From: Chloroflexota bacterium
GTDB taxonomy: Bacteria > Chloroflexota > Anaerolineae > UBA4142
Assembly (NCBI GenBank): GCA_037440625.1
Contig: JBBITT010000005.1
Coordinates: 41,492 to 105,491 of the forward strand
Reading direction: 5' to 3'
DNA length: 64,000 nucleotides
This document shows, piece after piece, positions 2,583 to 46,852 of this stretch. The notes under the pieces were generated by a model. The model was given only the letters and a program-made list of their open reading frames with translations. It did no database searches and was not told where the DNA came from. The translations under genes and the position numbers were made by a program. The first letter of the stretch is position 1; every line of letters starts with the position of its first letter.

Positions 2583-3515
2583 ATGACCCCCATTCTACAC
2601 CGTTTGACCGATAACGTAACTGCAATTGATTTGCAATTTCAAGGTCGCTCCAACGTCATCGCGTCATATCTTTTCTACGATGGCACACACGCTGCACTCG
2701 TCGAAACGGGTCCGGCATCCACCGTTGGCAATTTACTCGAAGGAGTTCAAGCGGCGGGCGTGCCGCTTGAAGCGTTGCGACAACTCGTCGTTACGCATAT
2801 TCACCTTGATCATTCCGGCGGCGCAGGCGTTATCGCGCAACAATTACCCTGGGTCAAGGTGTACGTGCACCCCATCGGCGCGCCACACCTTGCTGATCCA
2901 TCGAAATTGCTTGCCAGCGCGGCACGACTGTACGGCGATCAGATGGAAACCTTGTGGGGAACCACGCTGCCGGTGCCGCAAGAAAATCTTGTCGTCGTCA
3001 ACGATGGCGACCAAATCAAAATTCCCGGTTCAACGTTACGTGCGTTAGATACCCCGGGGCACGCGCGGCATCATCATGCGTATTTGGATGCGTCAAGTGG
3101 GTTGCTATTCACCGGCGATATTGCCGGCGTGCGAATGCCGGGTGTGGCCTATGTGCGTCCCCCCACGCCACCCCCCGAACTTGATCTGGAAGCGTGGATC
3201 GCGAGCATTGCCAAACTGCGTGCGACCAAAGCCACTGGCTTGTGCCTCACCCACTTTGGTTTGTTTCGCGGCGATCTCGCTTGGCATTGGGCCGATTTGG
3301 AAAAACGGCTGGTTGATTGGGGACAACTAGTGCGCGACGAATTGGAACAGGGCCAGGACGAAAACAATATTTTGGCACGCCTCAAATCCCAAGCCGCTGG
3401 CGAATTTCAAAAACTCAATGTTGATCCCAGCGCGTACGATGTCGCCGTGAGTTACGAATCGTTAGTCGCCGGGTATGTGAGATATTGGAAGAAAAAGCCG
3501 GCCTATGTCAAATAG
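2583..3515 (+). CDS. MBL-fold metallo-hydrolase
   Basis: HxHxDH motif in VVTHIHLDHSGG, with later DTPGH and HH ligand residues. GGGAGA lies 6 nt upstream of the ATG at 2583. Confidence 0.85.
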   Translation: MTPILHRLTDNVTAIDLQFQGRSNVIASYLFYDGTHAALVETGPASTVGNLLEGVQAAGVPLEALRQLVVTHIHLDHSGGAGVIAQQLPWVKVYVHPIGAPHLADPSKLLASAARLYGDQMETLWGTTLPVPQENLVVVNDGDQIKIPGSTLRALDTPGHARHHHAYLDASSGLLFTGDIAGVRMPGVAYVRPPTPPPELDLEAWIASIAKLRATKATGLCLTHFGLFRGDLAWHWADLEKRLVDWGQLVRDELEQGQDENNILARLKSQAAGEFQKLNVDPSAYDVAVSYESLVAGYVRYWKKKPAYVK

Positions 3516-3717
3516 AAATTATGTTCTAATTGGATTTTGGTTATCGCATTCCATACAACGCCACGCTGGTTTAGCGGGTGCGTTTGCGTACTAACTCAAT
3601 TGGCGTATAATGCAAATGTTCTCAACGCACGTTTGAAGACGGGGGCATTGTAAAGTGCAACCATCGGTGTACGGAATTTTCCAATGCCCTCTTAAACACA
3701 AGACCTAGGTTAGAAAA

Positions 3718-4812
3718 ATGGTCCAACCAATTTTTCCCTTCACCGCTATCGTCAATCAAGATAAAATGAAACGCGCGCTCGTGCTCAACGCGATCAATCC
3801 GCTCATCGGTGGAGTGCTTGTGCGCGGCGAACGCGGGACTGCCAAATCCACCGCCGTACGCGCACTCGCAGCGCTGCTGCCGGAAATCAGCGTTGTCGCC
3901 GATTGTCCGTTCAGTTGCAATCCGTACGAAAAAGATCGCTTGTGCGATTTTTGCCGGGAACGCGTCGCGCGCGGCGAAGAATTGCCGGTCGCTAAACGCA
4001 AAGTCCGCTTGGTAGATTTGCCGGTCAGCGCGACCGAGGATCGCGTCGTTGGGACGCTCGACATCGAACAGGCGATCAAAAAAGGCGAAAAGAAATTCGA
4101 GCCCGGCGTCCTCGCCGCGGCGAATCGTGGCATCCTTTACGTGGACGAAGTGAATCTGCTCGACGATCACGTCGTTGATCTGCTGCTCGATAGTGCGGCG
4201 ATGGGCGTGAACGTGGTCGAACGTGAAGGTATTTCGTTTCAGCATCCCGCACAATTCGTTTTGGTCGGCACGATGAATCCGGAAGAAGGCGAACTGCGTC
4301 CACAACTGCTCGATCGCTTTGGCTTGTCCGTTGAGATCAAGGGAATCAATGATGCCGATGCACGCGTTGAAATCGTTGAACGGCGTTTAGCCTTTGAGCA
4401 AGACCCGGTGGGCTTTTGCCAAGAATGGTGTGTCGCCGAAGAAAAGCTATCGAAAGAGATCGAAATCGCGCGTCAAAAGTTGCACGCGGTCACGCACACC
4501 CAAGCCGATTTGTACGCGATTGCCGAATTATCGGTTGGGCTTGAGGTGGATGGGCATCGTTCCGATTTGGTGATCTTAAAAGCCGCGCGTGCCCACGCCG
4601 CGTTGATGGGCCGAGATGCGATCAGCGAAGAAGATATTGTGCTGGCGGCGGAACTCGCGTTGCCGCATCGCGTCAAACGCAAAGCGATTCACGAAGTCGA
4701 GATGCGCTTTGAGAGTTTGGAAAAACGACTCGAAGCCCAAAGGCAAGCGCTAGGACAACCGGGCCAAGCCAAGCCCGAACCATCACGGGATGTAAAAAAA
4801 AAGCCAGCGTAA
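3718..4812 (+). CDS. ChlI/BchI-like AAA+ ATPase (chelatase small-subunit type); zero-frame product of a probable frameshift gene
   Basis: N-terminus [40 protein letters not shown] (Walker A), Walker [11 protein letters not shown], and a sensor region. The zero frame ends ...SRDVKKKPA* just after an A9 run. Confidence 0.88.
4797..4803 (+). other. Candidate -1 recoding site: A_AAA_AAG heptamer inside an A9 run (4794-4802)
   Basis: The zero-frame codons are GTA AAA AAA AAG CCA GCG TAA, so the heptamer is in the X_XXY_YYZ phase. The -1 frame (GCC AGC GTA ACC ...) is open from 4713 to the stop at 5765. Confidence 0.6.
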
Positions 4813-4907
4813 CCCCTGACGCGGAATCAGCGCGGGTCGCGCCGGAACCGGGCGAACAAACCACGCAAGGGACCGGGCACGAGCCGGGCAAACCCTCGGC
4901 GCGACCA

Positions 4908-5765
4908 TTGGATACCGTCGTCAACGTTGGCAAAACCTTTCGGCCACAAAGATTACAAACCCCGCTCGACAAACTACCGCGCAAAATCGCGGGCAAACGA
5001 TCGCGCACGCGCACCGAACGCAAGCGCGGTCGTTATATTTCCTCGCGTCCCATCAAAGGCAAGCCATCCGACATCGCATTCGATGCCACCCTTCGTCAAG
5101 CCGCGCCATACCAAATCAATCGCGCCCATAAGGACGTGGCGCTCGCCATCGAAAAACAGGACTTGCGCCAAAAGGTGCGCGTGCGGCGCGCCGCTAATTT
5201 GATTCTGTTCGTTGTGGATGCCTCGTGGTCTATGGCTGCCGCCGAGCGAATGATCGCCACGAAAGGCGCGATTATGTCGTTGCTGATTGACGCGTACCAA
5301 AAACGCGACCGCGTGGGCTTGGTGGTGTTTCAAAAAGAAGAAGCACGCGTGGTTTTGCCTCCCACGTCATCCGTTGATTTGGCGGAGAATGCGCTCAAAG
5401 AAATCCCGGTCGGTGGCAAGACGCCGCTCAGCGCTGGGCTTTTGCTGGCACACCAAGTTTTGATCCGCGAACGAATGAAGGATCGCGAGGTGATGCCGTT
5501 GATGATCGTTGTAACCGATGGCGCGGGGAACGTCTCGATGACCGATCTGCCACCGCAAGAAGAGGCGTACAAGGTCGCGGCAATGATCAAAAAAGCCGAT
5601 TTGCGCGCGGTTGTCATCAACACAGAACACGAGGCATTTGATCGCGGCTTGGCACAAGAGTTGGCGGACAACTTGGGCGCACCGTGTTACACGCTCAAGC
5701 AATTACGTGCCGAAGAGTTGTACGCGCGCGTGCGTGAAGAGATGCGGGGGATTGGGAAGGCATAG
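4908..5765 (+). CDS. VWA-domain protein (ChlD C-terminal type), probably translated as a -1 frame continuation from 4803 rather than from its own start
   Basis: MIDAS motif VVDASWSM and a VWA fold pattern (RVGLVVFQ..., MIVVTDGAGN). The only start candidate is TTG at 4908, which has no SD. The open frame upstream encodes a Pro/Glu/Gly/Thr-rich linker, PDAESARVAPEPGEQTTQGTGHEPGKPSARP. Confidence 0.8.
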   Translation: MDTVVNVGKTFRPQRLQTPLDKLPRKIAGKRSRTRTERKRGRYISSRPIKGKPSDIAFDATLRQAAPYQINRAHKDVALAIEKQDLRQKVRVRRAANLILFVVDASWSMAAAERMIATKGAIMSLLIDAYQKRDRVGLVVFQKEEARVVLPPTSSVDLAENALKEIPVGGKTPLSAGLLLAHQVLIRERMKDREVMPLMIVVTDGAGNVSMTDLPPQEEAYKVAAMIKKADLRAVVINTEHEAFDRGLAQELADNLGAPCYTLKQLRAEELYARVREEMRGIGKA

Positions 5766-5847
5766 TGCAATAGTTGCGTAGCGCGATAGTTTTATAGTTG
5801 CTCAATCACCAGTTACTCAATCGTTCTTTCTTCTGTGGCAGAGTTGA

Positions 5848-6657
5848 ATGCTAAACGCTATTTCCATTGATCTAGAAGATTGGTTTTGCGCGTACAATCT
5901 GCGAATTGAATCCAAAAATTGGGACAAGCAAGAGTTGCGCGTGGTGGATAACACCGAGCGCTTGCTCGCTCTGCTTGACCGGCATCACGTTCAAGCCACC
6001 TTCTTTGTGCTGGGTTGGTTTGCCGAACACACGCCGGCTTTGATTCGAACAATCGAGCAACGCGGACACGAAATTGCGACGCACGGTTATTCGCACACCG
6101 TTCTCACGGCGATGACGCCGGCTGAATTTGAAAGCGATCTCCAGCGCGCGCTGGAGGTTACCCGCGCCTGCGTGCAACAACCGATTCGCGGCTTCCGCGC
6201 ACCATCGTTCACGATCACACCCACAACGCTGTGGGCGCTCGACATTCTGGCAAAGCACGGCATCGTGTACGACTCGTCTATCTTTCCGATTAGCGGACAT
6301 CCGGATTACGGCATTGGCGACGCGCCGCTCACGATTCATCAACGCGGCGCGCTGACCGAAGTGCCGATGAGCGTCGCCGAAATCGCTGGCAAGCGTGTGC
6401 CGTGTAGTGGCGGCGGCTATTTTCGATTGTTTCCGTACACGATTACGAAATCTCTGATCGAAAGATGTAATCAGCAGGGACGCCCGGTCATCTTTTATCT
6501 CCATCCTTGGGAAATTGATCCTGACCAGCCGCGCCGCAAACTATCGCTCACGAAAAGTCTGCGCCATTACATCAATCTCGATAAAACATTTGGGCGTTTG
6601 GATCGTTTGCTCACCGATTTTCAATTTACCTCGATACAAAAGGTGATTGGTTTATGA
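5848..6657 (+). CDS. Polysaccharide deacetylase family protein (NodB-type with a DUF3473-like C-terminus)
   Basis: ISIDLEDWF, ATFFVLGW and ATHGYSH motifs, plus a C-terminal region typical of the exopolysaccharide-locus deacetylase subfamily. Confidence 0.75.
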   Translation: MLNAISIDLEDWFCAYNLRIESKNWDKQELRVVDNTERLLALLDRHHVQATFFVLGWFAEHTPALIRTIEQRGHEIATHGYSHTVLTAMTPAEFESDLQRALEVTRACVQQPIRGFRAPSFTITPTTLWALDILAKHGIVYDSSIFPISGHPDYGIGDAPLTIHQRGALTEVPMSVAEIAGKRVPCSGGGYFRLFPYTITKSLIERCNQQGRPVIFYLHPWEIDPDQPRRKLSLTKSLRHYINLDKTFGRLDRLLTDFQFTSIQKVIGL

Positions 6658-8348: not shown

Positions 8349-9479
8349 ATGAAAGTTTCGTGCTTGCAAGAAAATCTCGCCAAAGGTCTTTCGATTGTCA
8401 GCCGTGCCGTTGCTTCGCGCTCGACGTTGCCGGTGTTGGGCAATGTTTTGCTCGCGACCGATCAGGGTCGTCTCAAAATCGCCGCGACGAACTTGGAACT
8501 GGCGGTTACGTGTTGGATCGGTGCCAAAGTAGATACCGAGGGCGCCATTACGGTCCCCGCACGCGTGTTAAGCGATTTTGTCAATTCATTGCCACCCGAA
8601 CGAATCGAAATGGAATTGAACCCGCGCACCCAAACGTTGCATCTTAAATGCGCGCGGTACGATGCAAACATCAAAGGGATTGATGCGCAAGAATTTCCAA
8701 TCATCCCCACCATCGGCGATGGCAAACGGATTGCGCTTGAACCCGAAACGCTCCGCGAAATGATTGAGCAGGTAACTTTTGCCGCCGCGACGGACGAATC
8801 GCGCCCGGTACTCACTGGGGTGGTGGCAAAATTCGAAAAAGATAAGGTAACCTTTGCCGCCGCCGATGGCTTTCGCTTATCGGTACGCCATGCCACCTTG
8901 CCCACGCCAATCGAGCAATCGTTCAGTGTCATTATCCCAGCAAAAGCGTTACAAGAAGTCGCGCGCGTGAGCGGCACCCAAGAAGATCCAATCGAACTCG
9001 CCATCACCGAAAATCGCTCCCAGATTCTATTCAAATTGACCAACATCGAAATTGTTTCGCAGTTGATTGACGGCACGTTCCCGGATTTCACGCGCATTAT
9101 TCCGGAATCGCACACCACGCGCACCGTGGTCAAGACCTCCGAATTGCAGAATGCGGTCAAAGCATCGTCGGTCTTTGCACGCGAATCTATGAACACGGTG
9201 CGCTTGCAAATTGCGCCTGCCAACGATTTGGGCGGCGGCAAGATCACCATCACCGCCACCAGTGCGGAATCCGGCGATAATGTGGGAGACATTGACGCCA
9301 CCGTGGACGGCGACTCGATTGAGATTGCCTTCAACGCGCGTTATCTTGCCGAAGTTCTCAACGTTCTCAAGGCGGCGCAAGTTGCAATTGAGACAACCAG
9401 CGCATCCAGCCCCGGCGTTTTCAAGATTGTTGGACGCGATGATTTCATTCACGTGATTATGCCGATGCATGTCAAGTAA
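8349..9479 (+). CDS. dnaN: DNA polymerase III subunit beta (sliding clamp)
   Basis: MKVSCLQENLAKGLSIVSRAVASRSTLPVLGNVLL... at 376 aa, the typical length and N-terminal pattern. Confidence 0.92.
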   Translation: MKVSCLQENLAKGLSIVSRAVASRSTLPVLGNVLLATDQGRLKIAATNLELAVTCWIGAKVDTEGAITVPARVLSDFVNSLPPERIEMELNPRTQTLHLKCARYDANIKGIDAQEFPIIPTIGDGKRIALEPETLREMIEQVTFAAATDESRPVLTGVVAKFEKDKVTFAAADGFRLSVRHATLPTPIEQSFSVIIPAKALQEVARVSGTQEDPIELAITENRSQILFKLTNIEIVSQLIDGTFPDFTRIIPESHTTRTVVKTSELQNAVKASSVFARESMNTVRLQIAPANDLGGGKITITATSAESGDNVGDIDATVDGDSIEIAFNARYLAEVLNVLKAAQVAIETTSASSPGVFKIVGRDDFIHVIMPMHVK

Positions 9480-21033: not shown

Positions 21034-21981
21034 ATGCCCAAAGCATTAGTGACCGGTGGTGCCGGGTTTATCGGCTCTCATCTTGTTGAAGGATTGCTAG
21101 CACAAGGATGGGATGTGCGCGTGTTGGATAATTTTTCCACCGGGCATCGCGAAAACATCAAAACTATCATCAATCAAATTGATTTGCTCGAAGGCGATGT
21201 AACCAACTTGACCACTGTGCGCTTTGCGGTGCGGAACGTAGAGGTGATTTTTCATCAAGCCGCGTTGCCGTCCGTTGCACGCTCGGTGGCAAATCCGTTG
21301 GAGAGCAACGAAGTCAATATCACCGGCACGCTGAACGTTCTGCTCGCGGCGCGCGATGCCGGCGTCAAACGCGTGGTGTACGCCGCCTCATCGTCCGCGT
21401 ATGGCGATACACCCACGTTGCCCAAAGTGGAAACAATGACGCCCACACCCTTGTCGCCATACGCGATTGCGAAATTGACCGGCGAAATGTACGCCCGCGC
21501 CTTTACTCAACTGTATGGTCTCTCCACCATTTCGCTGCGCTACTTTAACGTGTTTGGACCGCGTCAAGACCCTACCACGCAGTACGCTGGCGTCATCGCC
21601 AAGTTTTGCACGTGCGCGATTGAAGGCAAGCCGTACCCGGTCTTTGGCGATGGCGAGCAATCACGCGATTTCACGTACGTGGAAAATGTTGTGCACGCCA
21701 ATTTGCTTGCCGCTCATGCTAAACTAGATGGCGCGACGATGGTCAACATCGCTTGCGGCGAGCGAACAACGCTCAATCAATTAATTACGTTGTTGAATGA
21801 ACTCACGCATCAAAATTTGCCGGCGCATTATGGACCTGCGCGTGCCGGCGATGTGCGGCATTCCCAAGCGGATATTACGCGCGCCGGCAAATTGTTAGGT
21901 TATGAGCCACGCGTGGATATTCGCGAAGGATTGCGCCGCACGTTGGAATGGTACCGCAACAAACCAAGGGATTCACAATGA
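21034..21981 (+). CDS. NAD-dependent sugar-nucleotide epimerase/dehydratase (SDR, WbpP/TviC-like)
   Basis: VTGGAGFIGSHL Rossmann motif, SSSAYG, and YAIAKL (YxxxK). Confidence 0.82.
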   Translation: MPKALVTGGAGFIGSHLVEGLLAQGWDVRVLDNFSTGHRENIKTIINQIDLLEGDVTNLTTVRFAVRNVEVIFHQAALPSVARSVANPLESNEVNITGTLNVLLAARDAGVKRVVYAASSSAYGDTPTLPKVETMTPTPLSPYAIAKLTGEMYARAFTQLYGLSTISLRYFNVFGPRQDPTTQYAGVIAKFCTCAIEGKPYPVFGDGEQSRDFTYVENVVHANLLAAHAKLDGATMVNIACGERTTLNQLITLLNELTHQNLPAHYGPARAGDVRHSQADITRAGKLLGYEPRVDIREGLRRTLEWYRNKPRDSQ

Positions 21982-23129
21982 ACGACAAAACCAAACTCAT
22001 CACGGGTTTGCAAGCCGCGTGGAAACGCGAGATTGCCGGCGCAAAAACCTATCGTGCGTTGGCAGAGCGCGCGCGTTCCCGGGAACAGCGAGACATCCTG
22101 ATCCGCCTTGCCGAAGCGGAAGAGCGCCACGCGGAAACCTGGGCGGCGCGTTTGCGCGAACTGGGCAGCGCACCGCCGGTGTTTCGCGAGACTCTGATCG
22201 AACGCCTCCGCCGCTGGATCTGGGTGCAATCGGGAACGGAGAATGCGTTGCGCCAGATCGAAGCGATGGAAGATTCCGATACCTCCGCATATGCGGACCT
22301 GATGCAAGCGACAACCGAAGAAAAAGATCGCGCTGCCGTGCGTACCACCGAAATCGAAGAAAAGACGCACGCCAAACTTTTGAGCGAGATGACGCAACCG
22401 CCCGCCCCCGTCGCTCGGCTTGAAGCGATGATGAAGACCGAAAAGTGGCACGTGCGCGGCGGGGGCTGGATTGGTCAAGCGATTTATGGAATGAACGATG
22501 GACTCGGCTCGGTGTTTGGTGTGGTCGCCGGGGTGGCTGGCGCGACAAGTGCGAGCGCGCAATTTGTTATTATCAGCGGCATTGCGGCAGTCGTGGCGAA
22601 CGCGGTCTCGATGGGCGCGGGGGCGTATCTTGCGACCAAATCCGAACGCGAGGTGTATGAAGCAGAAATCGCGCGTGAACGCCGGGAACTGGAAACCGAT
22701 CCTGAGCAAGAGCGTGAAGAGATGGCATTGTTCTATGAACTCAAGGGCTTTACGCCGGATGAAGCAAAAAAATTGGCGGCGCGGATGGCAGAGAATCCGG
22801 AACAAATGTTGAAAACTCTGGCATCGGAAGAATTGGGGTTATCGGCAGAGACCTTTCCCAATCCCTGGCGCGAGGGATTGAGCGCGGGCGTGTTCACTGC
22901 ACTAGGCGCATTCATTCCGGTGGTCCCTTTCTTCTTCACCGATGGTATGCCGGCGGTCATTGCATCGTTTATCATCTCATCGCTGGCGTACTTTGGAGTG
23001 GGCGCATCCAAGGTGTTGGTGACCGGGCGCAATTGGCTGCGCAGTGGTATGGAAATGCTCTTGATTGGGCTTGGGGTGGGAATCGTAACCTACGCCATTG
23101 GGTCGCTGTTCGAGTTACAAATCCCATAG
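21978..23129 (+). CDS. Ferritin-like (erythrin) domain fused to a VIT1/CCC1 iron/manganese transporter domain (MbfA-like)
   Basis: N-terminus ...KTYRALAERARSREQRDILIRLAEAEERHAETW (ExxH di-iron motif). The C-terminus has VIT1-type TM helices (GMNDGLGSVFGVVAGVAG...). The ATG at 21978 overlaps the upstream stop. Confidence 0.75.
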   Translation: MNDKTKLITGLQAAWKREIAGAKTYRALAERARSREQRDILIRLAEAEERHAETWAARLRELGSAPPVFRETLIERLRRWIWVQSGTENALRQIEAMEDSDTSAYADLMQATTEEKDRAAVRTTEIEEKTHAKLLSEMTQPPAPVARLEAMMKTEKWHVRGGGWIGQAIYGMNDGLGSVFGVVAGVAGATSASAQFVIISGIAAVVANAVSMGAGAYLATKSEREVYEAEIARERRELETDPEQEREEMALFYELKGFTPDEAKKLAARMAENPEQMLKTLASEELGLSAETFPNPWREGLSAGVFTALGAFIPVVPFFFTDGMPAVIASFIISSLAYFGVGASKVLVTGRNWLRSGMEMLLIGLGVGIVTYAIGSLFELQIP

Positions 23130-45442: not shown

Positions 45443-46852
45443 CTATCCTTTGACCTCATAGAGCCGTTCTTTGATGGCGAGAACCTCGCGTCGCCGGTTA
45501 TCATCCATCTCGATTTGCTCAGCGATTTTATCATGGGCGTACATCACGGTGGTATGATCGCGCCCACCGAGTATCTCGCCAATCTGCGGGAGCGAGGCAT
45601 CGGTCTCTTCGCGCAACAAGTACATAGCTACTTGGCGTGGCAAAACCACCTCTTTGTTGCGACTGCGTCCTGCTAGATCGTTAACATCCACGTTGTAAAA
45701 ATCGGCGACCGCTTGCAAAACCTGATCCACGGTTACCGGCTTGTGGCGCAAAATATCTTGCAACACCGTATTTGCCAATTCGACACTCATTGTGGCTTTC
45801 ATCAATTGGGCATATCCCAGCACGCGGGTTAACGCCCCTTCTAGTTCACGGATGTTGCTTTGGACTTTATGGGCAATCAAGTCAATGACCTCGGTGGGGA
45901 CCGGGGCGCCGAGCGCATCGGCTTTGGTACGTAAAATGGCGATCCGCATTTCCAGATCAGGCGGCTGAATATCGGTGATCATACCGCCTTCAAAGCGTGA
46001 GCGTACGCGTTCTTCAAGTGTCGGGATGGCGCGCGGATGGCGATCGCTGGAAATAACGATTTGTTTATTGGCGGCATAGAGATGATTGAACGTATGGAAA
46101 AATTCTTCCTGGGTTGCTTCCTTGCCAGCGATGAACTGAATATCGTCAATCAGCAGCACATCAATCTCGCGATAGATGCGACGAAATTCGTTGGTGGTTT
46201 GATTGCGAATTGCGTTGATGAGATCGTTGGTAAAAGTTTCGGAGGAGACGTAAAGCACACGTCTGCTTCGCACGACCGGGTGTTGACCCAGGGCGTGAAG
46301 CAAATGAGTCTTGCCCAACCCGGTCCCCCCATAGATGAACAAGGGATTGTACGATTCGCCGGGATGTTCGGCAACCGCCAATGCCGCCGCATGCGCCAAC
46401 CGATTTGAATTGCCAACGATAAACGTGGCGAACGTGTACTTGGAATTCAGCGGACGTGCACGTCCCATCAAATCATTGGCGGGTAGTTGAGCAGTGGATT
46501 GTTCGTCCATTCTTGATTCGTCCGGCGGACTGTTCAACGCACGGTGTAACGGTTCCGAGTTCCCAGCGTCGTCTGCCGATCCATGACGGGGAATGTTCTT
46601 GTCTTTAACGACGTACTGAATAGTTACTGGCTCGCCCACAATACCGGTGATGGTGCGATGAATGGTTGCTTGCAAACGGTTCTCTAACCATTCTTTGGCG
46701 TACGCGCTGTGGACGCCAACAATCAACGCACCATTATTATACTCAATTGCGTGTGTAGGTCTAACCCACGTATCAAACGTGGCTTTGGTCATTTGCAGTT
46801 GTAATTCGCCAAGGGTGGCGTGCCAAATGTCCTGTGCATTCATAGATGGCAA
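45443..46852 (-). CDS. dnaA: Chromosomal replication initiator protein DnaA
   Basis: Walker A GGTGLGKTHL, box VII, and the C-terminal DNA-binding helix LPQIGEILGGRDHTTVMYAHDKI. The start is either TTG at 46852 or ATG at 46843. Confidence 0.93.
   Translation of the reverse strand: MPSMNAQDIWHATLGELQLQMTKATFDTWVRPTHAIEYNNGALIVGVHSAYAKEWLENRLQATIHRTITGIVGEPVTIQYVVKDKNIPRHGSADDAGNSEPLHRALNSPPDESRMDEQSTAQLPANDLMGRARPLNSKYTFATFIVGNSNRLAHAAALAVAEHPGESYNPLFIYGGTGLGKTHLLHALGQHPVVRSRRVLYVSSETFTNDLINAIRNQTTNEFRRIYREIDVLLIDDIQFIAGKEATQEEFFHTFNHLYAANKQIVISSDRHPRAIPTLEERVRSRFEGGMITDIQPPDLEMRIAILRTKADALGAPVPTEVIDLIAHKVQSNIRELEGALTRVLGYAQLMKATMSVELANTVLQDILRHKPVTVDQVLQAVADFYNVDVNDLAGRSRNKEVVLPRQVAMYLLREETDASLPQIGEILGGRDHTTVMYAHDKIAEQIEMDDNRRREVLAIKERLYEVKG

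Follow-up and report, generated by a model that had tools for sequence, protein, structure and literature searches.

The locus described here raises a simple question: do a ChlI-like AAA+ open reading frame (ORF) and the VWA-encoding frame that overlaps its end represent two genes, or one gene that is decoded in two ways? The locus lies in a 64,000-nucleotide stretch of contig JBBITT010000005.1 (positions 41,492 to 105,491 of the forward strand) from a Chloroflexota bacterium of the Anaerolineae, hereafter called the window; unless another locus is named, ORF and frame coordinates are those of the whole window and refer to its + strand. We conclude that the locus is very probably one frameshifted chlD gene ("fs-chlD") and not two genes. 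Standard decoding of 3718-4812 would end at the TAA at 4810 and give a 364-amino-acid ChlI-like AAA+ ATPase. A fraction of expression events would involve a shift of the frame by -1 within GTA AAA AAA AAG (4792-4803), after which translation would resume with the GCC at 4803 and, past a linker rich in Pro and Glu, reach the VWA/MIDAS part. The long product would be a ChlD-like protein of 682 amino acids having its N-terminal 362 residues in common with the short product, and both products would go into a ChlI/ChlD-type AAA+ complex. It is plausible that the recoding sets the ChlI:ChlD ratio. Recoding of this type has been described before in the chlD family, to which the present locus adds a member and no new mechanism.

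The sequence was read directly. The zero-frame ORF closes with GAT GTA AAA AAA AAG CCA GCG TAA, which places the heptamer A_AAA_AAG at 4797-4803 in the X_XXY_YYZ phase and a second heptamer, A_AAA_AAA, also in phase, at 4794-4800. No stop interrupts the -1 frame between 4713 and the stop codon at 5763-5765 that ends it, and the conceptual -1 fusion comprises 362 + 320 = 682 amino acids. Every detail that the initial annotation had given of the ORF ends, the run of nine A's (A9), the heptamer phase, the open -1 frame and the length of the fusion was borne out by this reading. The remaining features are listed in the table. Two other copies of AAAAAAG are found in the same gene, at 4078-4084 (Ile-Lys-Lys-Gly) and 5589-5595 (Ile-Lys-Lys-Ala); both are in the phase AAA_AAA_G, which is not the slip phase, and both belong to six-A runs.

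Table. Features of the recoded locus in the window and, in the last four rows, tracts of homologous loci in which both parts are in one frame (coordinates in the locus named).
Feature	Coordinates	Strand	Basis or remark
Zero-frame ORF, ChlI-like AAA+ short product	3718-4812	+	ATG start, 364 amino acids, standard decoding
Walker A, GERGTAKST, residues 37-45	3826-3852	+	Translation and ChlI alignment; invariant in homologue alignment
Four-cysteine motif in AAA+ module (C63, C67, C76, C79)	3904-3954	+	All four invariant in homologue alignment
Walker B, LYVDEV	4135-4152	+	Translation and ChlI alignment
A9 tract, predicted frame-change site	4794-4802	+	Sequence; within GTA AAA AAA AAG, 4792-4803
Zero-frame stop TAA ending short product	4810-4812	+	Two codons 3' of the heptamer
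-1-frame part of predicted long product, residues 363-682 of 682-amino-acid ChlD-like protein	4803-5765	+	Includes stop 5763-5765
Linker, -1 frame, Pro/Glu/Gly/Thr-rich	4803-4934	+	Translation; colinear with linker of single-ORF homologues
TTG, only start-type codon of the -1 frame	4908-4910	+	Judged unused
VWA domain with MIDAS motif DASWS (5217-5231)	5202-5630	+	Pfam VWA_2 and VWA, fusion residues 496-638
In-frame tract, L081	7080-7088		GTA AAA AAA AAC
In-frame tract, L082	7080-7088		
In-frame tract, L083	3700-3708		GGT AAA AAA AAA GAC
In-frame tract, L084	7085-7094		GAA AAA AAA AAG

Profile and homology searches treat the conceptual fusion as an ordinary protein. Pfam assigns it Mg_chelatase, AAA_5, AAA_lid_2 and VWA/VWA_2, and it scores 791.1 bits (cutoff 779.45) with the NCBIfam model TIGR02442 ("putative cobaltochelatase"), of which positions 1-640 of 641 are matched; this score above cutoff belongs to the fusion only. 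Its best matches among 5.8 billion proteins are single-ORF proteins of 671-703 amino acids from Anaerolineae, Caldilineae and Thermoflexus, which cover 99% of the fusion at identities of up to 68% and align with it colinearly across the junction. The end-to-end match to TIGR02442 and the colinear single-ORF homologues together imply that the fusion is a real protein architecture, and the ChlD-type order of AAA+ module, linker and VWA domain that had been proposed from the letters alone therefore stands. The MIDAS motif reads VVDASWSM, with D501 encoded at 5217-5219, and D501, S503 and S505 are invariant in the homologue alignment.

The short product matches Synechocystis ChlI (PDB 6l8d) with 357 bits. 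The gene falls under the cutoffs of both Mg-chelatase equivalogs, with 445.6 bits for BchI/ChlI (TIGR02030, cutoff 466.95) and 441.6 bits for BchD/ChlD (TIGR02031, cutoff 499.55); judged by these profiles, it is a Mg-chelatase homologue that falls short of a bona fide subunit of that enzyme. The positions of the four cysteines are taken by N, S, M and E in cyanobacterial ChlI, and the Walker A motif of the short product reads GERGTAKST where ChlI has GDRGTGKST. The cysteines could form a clade-specific metal-binding or redox site. Precomputed annotation of the in-frame homologues L081-L084 lists, after the AAA lid and before the VWA domain, the family PF26791 ("AAPxQ"), which was missing from the Pfam result for the fusion; PF26791 may correspond to the conserved motif DATLRxAAPYQ.

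Relatives were collected by a one-genome-per-species scan and a metagenome scan, with identity measured on the ChlI core. One of them, L001 (Anaerolineae bacterium isolate H63_652), shares 99.7% identity with the window over the ChlI ORF. The one-genome-per-species scan yielded 22 Chloroflexota loci with 70-100% identity over the whole ChlI ORF, and all of them have the VWA part in the -1 frame and the junction GTA (TTA once) AAA AAA AAG. When all relatives are sorted by ChlI-core identity, the 21 loci at 79% or above, all taken from other assemblies, are all split between the 0 and -1 frames, with exactly A9 in each, and none is in frame; the two-frame layout and the A-run with its heptamer, which the initial annotation had proposed to follow through orthologues, are thus kept in 21 of 21. 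Between 58% and 78%, 22 loci are split (A7 in 2, A8 in 2, A9 in 11 and A10 in 7) and 32 are in frame, 14 of the latter with A9-A11. Below 58%, split loci are absent and 81 are in frame, none with a run of nine or more A's; one further locus in this band (L046) has its VWA match in the +1 frame and an A7 run. All 43 split loci therefore carry an A7-A10 tract at the junction, and their VWA parts remain 76-98% identical. The zero-frame stop follows one or two codons past the AAG in all close orthologues and may be TAA, TAG or TGA. The short ORF itself belongs to a 90% cluster of 53 members, among which 12 of the 15 listed are 363-364 amino acids long, and the listed members come from independent sources (NCBI, JGI, ENA and Logan). 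A locus on a 417-kb contig (L019, near 4862) has a ChlI frame with an internal stop and an apparent identity of 72%, together with a VWA part that is 89% identical and an intact A9 junction; either indel errors or real decay would explain its ChlI part.

The junction itself was aligned for 20 sequences, the window and 19 loci. TAAAAAAAAAGC is the sole invariant block of this alignment, and the flanks vary. The codon before the lysines is GTA or TTA in 20 of 20 junctions, although GTA makes up 2.7% of the Val codons in the 20 ChlI ORFs. Since this codon is kept against codon usage, the ninth A (4794), which lies outside A_AAA_AAG, is selected as well. Two loci bound the place of the shift: in L025 a -1-frame TGA stands one codon before GGT AAA AAA AAA GCC, and L017 has a 0-frame stop one codon past the AAG, which together confine the shift to about GGTAAAAAAAAAGCGC, a window of some 16 nucleotides centred on the tract. 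In several loci the -1 ORF opens merely 12-24 nucleotides ahead of the first -1 codon after the tract. Pairwise diversity in the linker (4806-4930) is 0.33, 0.21 and 0.52 at positions 1, 2 and 3 of the -1-frame codons, a pattern that reads as the coding signature of that frame, beginning at the tract. Taken as comparative evidence, these results show that a frame change at the tract is needed and under selection, and they back the earlier proposal that one locus gives two products by a -1 change at the A-run.

The tract is also present in homologues that are not split. At 58-74% ChlI-core identity, 14 in-frame loci have A9-A11 at the same place, where the ChlI part meets the linker, and between them they use each of the three codon phases; besides the four given in the table they include L085, L087-L091 (A11 in L091), L096, L099 and L021. 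In the homologue alignment "KK" is the sole conserved feature of an otherwise unconserved linker. These 14 loci reach a -1-frame stop 0-7 codons past the tract, whereas the background medians are 13-36 codons (Fisher combined p 1.4e-4, for loci that are not independent), and stops in the +1 frame show no enrichment in the same loci (p = 0.10). These in-frame tracts suggest the same device with reversed polarity, by which unsplit genes would yield a truncated ChlI-like product. Similar junctions occur in both layouts: L020 (near 2057) and L024 (near 5089) are split, with GTA AAA AAA AAG AGC; L085 is in frame, has a T ahead of the tract and keeps A9 (GTT AAA AAA AAA GAG); and L021 (near 4846) is in frame with A10, which at its 3.7x coverage could be an error. 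It seems that the tract survives when the layout changes.

Several observations weigh against reading the locus as one recoded gene. An A9 is by itself not improbable within 64 kb: the window holds 1 run of A9 or T9 where shuffled sequences lead one to expect 2.76, and AAAAAAG occurs 23 times against 14.6 expected. Since the tract is unremarkable by chance, the case rests on its position, exactly within the overlap of the 0 and -1 frames, and on its conservation. Stimulatory RNA elements were also not found in conserved form. The consensus fold downstream of the 20 junctions (RNAalifold) reached -3 kcal/mol with no covariation, folding of the downstream region locus by locus gave a mean z of -0.2 over 20 loci, and RNAalifold on the region from -75 to +10, covering an upstream hairpin or Shine-Dalgarno (SD) element, found no pairs. 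In the window, the 45 nucleotides past the tract (4804-4848) form a moderately stable fold (-18 kcal/mol, z -1.5 to -2.1), but the stem of this hairpin begins without a spacer and is not conserved, and the upstream GGGA at 4787-4790 is found in the window only. The segment 4804-4900, named in the initial annotation as a place to look for a stimulatory structure, gave a z of -0.62 and nothing conserved. Its description of the site as dnaX-type accordingly holds for the heptamer, A_AAA_AAG in phase, and fails for the accompanying elements, there being no conserved upstream SD or downstream hairpin. In E. coli dnaX, an SD-like element and a hairpin are both required for high frameshifting efficiency. 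An Rfam scan of 3500-6000 returned only a sub-threshold chance match, and a promoter and terminator scan between both ORFs returned nothing informative. Among the 30 largest ORFs of the window there is no CobN/ChlH, Mg_chel, cobalamin or tetrapyrrole family, as had been noted for cobN and chlH from the letters, and without a large subunit in the window the need for two "chelatase subunits" is unexplained. Finally, that both products are made in this organism, and at what ratio, we infer from precedent.

Could the split instead be a matter of assembly, a miscount of a true A10, or else a recent pseudogene? Sequencing errors are common in homopolymers, the window derives from a metagenome-assembled genome, and the relative L021 is in frame with its A10 at 3.7x coverage; yet the tract recurs in 43 split loci from many projects and assemblers, with exactly nine A's in 21 of the 21 close ones, their conserved VWA parts have a coding substitution pattern, no fused protein exceeding 68% identity was found among the 5.8 billion searched, and the listed members of the 53-member short-ORF cluster are mostly of 363-364 amino acids. 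An artefact of this kind is extremely improbable, and on the comparative record assembly error and recent decay may be considered excluded for practical purposes. A pair of ordinary genes, ChlI and a separate VWA gene with its own start (TTG 4908) or coupled to it by termination-reinitiation, is what automatic annotation names, and other phyla do have chlI and chlD adjacent yet separate (Firmicutes loci). The separate genes of those phyla encode a full ChlD with its own AAA+ module, however, with the VWA part about 1 kb downstream, and not a bare VWA protein. In the window, the -1 frame up to 180 nucleotides past the tract offers only TTG 4908, without an SD-like motif, in agreement with the earlier claim that the VWA part has no usable start; this TTG is shared only with L001 and replaced in the other orthologues. 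No start in the -1 frame is conserved, SD-like motifs are missing from all those of the close clade, and L004 and L006 lack any start codon from the opening of the -1 ORF to 180 nucleotides past the tract. The linker 5' of any candidate start is moreover under -1 coding constraint and aligns with the single-ORF linker, and we consider two independent genes highly improbable. Phase variation at the DNA level, in which replication slippage toggles A9 and A10 within a population and thereby switches the long protein on and off, has in its favour that poly-A is slippery for DNA polymerase too (PMC3711429) and that split and in-frame states with similar junctions exist in the wider clade (A9 in L020 and L024, A10 in L021). 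Both states would be expected among assemblies if the locus were phase-variable, whereas all 21 close loci have A9 as their consensus, and a cytoplasmic AAA+/VWA protein would be an unusual target; this explanation is very unlikely, and it is compatible with a recoded gene, to which it could add a slow evolutionary layer.

With one recoded gene as the preferred explanation, two routes, between which the initial annotation had appropriately not decided, are compatible with the tract and would give an identical long protein: the addition of one extra A by RNA polymerase, or a -1 slip of tRNA-Lys on A_AAA_AAA or A_AAA_AAG. A purely ribosomal programmed frameshift on A_AAA_AAG, as in E. coli dnaX, agrees with the correct phase of the heptamer in all close orthologues, with the metagenomic split genes of shortest tract (A7; L134 and L161), which are exactly the in-phase A_AAA_AAA, and with the early stops that in-frame homologues have in the -1 and not the +1 frame, and the literature names the chlD signal ribosomal frameshifting (PMC9227772, PMC5009743). 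The additional A's would then be accounted for by A9 supplying two tandem heptamers. It is harder to reconcile with the lack of a conserved upstream SD-like element or downstream structure, with the invariance of the ninth A against codon usage outside the heptamer, and with homologues that keep tracts of 9-11 A's in all three codon phases; hosts with tRNA-Lys(CUU) would also shift poorly on AAG (an argument made in PMC5009743). No tRNA-Lys gene lies in the 64-kb window, where the only tRNA is tRNA-Leu. We regard the purely ribosomal route as a serious possibility that falls somewhat below an even chance. Slippage of RNA polymerase on A9, as in Thermus thermophilus dnaX, would create a fraction of A10 mRNA from which the long protein is made by ordinary translation, and in its favour stand exactly nine conserved A's, synonymous position included, the finding of no further conserved element at the junction, and, in homologues, the retention of tract length but not of codon phase or default frame. 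The split L020 and L024 and the in-frame L085 fit a one-base indel outside the tract that leaves A9 in both. Runs of 9 A/T slip efficiently in vivo (PMC5009743), and in E. coli the frameshift product of Mg-chelatase cassettes amounted to 10%, 40% and 63% for runs of 7, 9 and 11 A's, yield climbing with run length (PMC3711429). Nevertheless, the A7-A8 tracts of some split genes are poor substrates for polymerase slippage, and the conservation of phase in the close clade is equally predicted by ribosomal frameshifting; polymerase slippage as the route comes close to an even chance. We estimate that both routes contribute, with polymerase slippage the larger at about 55:45, favoured because nine A's and not the heptamer alone are selected and because no stimulatory element is conserved.

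A wider reading, which we offer tentatively and consider rather unlikely in its entirety, is that A9-A11 constitutes a phase-independent, polarity-reversible device for two products across the Chloroflexota-type chlD clade, working mainly by polymerase slippage, its layouts flipped by one-base indels that spare the tract, and that the four-cysteine pair, with no large subunit in view, acts outside tetrapyrrole metal insertion.

The genomic surroundings offer little guidance on function. Housekeeping genes surround the locus: ruvA, yebC, an MBL-fold (metallo-beta-lactamase) hydrolase, a polysaccharide deacetylase, methyltransferases and dnaN. Only the upstream MBL-fold hydrolase, the methyltransferases and dnaN are common to close relatives, and this shared synteny mirrors relatedness and is no functional clue. 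The window contains no second copy of chlI or of the VWA part, and cobN is absent among the neighbours of four in-frame homologues. An association with cobN or cobalt genes, which we take to be a feature of TIGR02442 members, was not encountered within the window. The dnaN gene (8349-9479, +) and dnaA (45443-46852, -) are about 36 kb apart on opposite strands, unlike the common adjacent dnaA-dnaN arrangement. Elsewhere in the window, an ORF at 21948-23129 (+) encodes a rubrerythrin/ferritin-like domain at the N-terminus together with a domain of the VIT1 (vacuolar iron transporter) family.

Loci of this kind are routinely annotated as "ChlI" plus a hypothetical VWA protein and should be annotated as one recoded chlD gene; the misannotation affects the inference of cobalamin and chlorophyll pathways in metagenome-assembled genomes. 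The clade is densely sampled, with 43 split and 14 in-frame tract-bearing loci, and selection on the tract can be read from it directly. It thereby sharpens two questions in the literature, namely whether chlD recoding is ribosomal or transcriptional, and what ChlI and ChlD do in anaerobes without a large chelatase subunit.

The closest known system is fs-chlD itself. The initial annotation had pointed to a report of programmed frameshifting in chlD genes, and such reports exist: Antonov et al. 2013 described a Mg-chelatase cluster of frameshifted genes that includes the Chloroflexi genus Herpetosiphon, with frameshifting confirmed in E. coli (PMC3711429), and a second report is Antonov 2020 in Molecular Biology and Evolution, as cited in PMC9227772. 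The review of Atkins et al. 2016 has a section "Magnesium chelatase: also regulatory?" and places A_AAA_AAR under purifying selection in the family (PMC5009743). Kuznetsov et al. 2022 list fs-chlD in Brevefilum, Anaerolinea, Ornatilinea, Longilinea and Levilinea; they note that cobN, chlH and the pathways for B12 and chlorophyll are missing from some of these Anaerolineae genomes, so that the pair has no known function there (PMC9227772). Our locus resembles fs-chlD in its ChlI-like ORF, the A-rich slippery tract with a stop just after it, the -1 linker and VWA part and the annotation as two genes, as well as in the conservation of an A-rich slippery site in the overlap under purifying selection. 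It differs in that a downstream RNA structure is "usual" for fs-chlD signals, if not obligatory (PMC9227772), and none is conserved here, and in that the present uncultured Anaerolineae lineage is not named in PMC3711429, PMC5009743 or PMC9227772.

With the canonical ChlI/BchI and ChlD/BchD subunits, and with the CobN-associated ChlD of TIGR02442, the locus shares domain architecture and high sequence similarity. In contrast to the two genes of the canonical chelatases, it is one recoded gene with no large subunit or tetrapyrrole genes nearby, and the N-terminal AAA+ module of its "D" product is identical to the "I" product and not a diverged copy; the four cysteines in place of N/S/M/E and the GTAKS form of Walker A, where canonical ChlI has GTGKS, set it apart further. 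E. coli dnaX has the identical A_AAA_AAG in the same phase and also makes two products with a common N-terminal AAA+ module, but frameshifting there gives the short product and here the long one, and the SD-like stimulator and hairpin present there are not conserved here. Thermus thermophilus dnaX uses slippage at a run of nine A/T (PMC5009743) and is alike in its homopolymer of nine, in needing no RNA stimulators and in yielding two products per gene. Its template encodes the long form and the slip gives the short one, an arrangement that matches the in-frame homologues L081-L099 and not the window. The parallel with dnaX extends to this reversal, as slippage would produce the short form in certain lineages and in others the long one.

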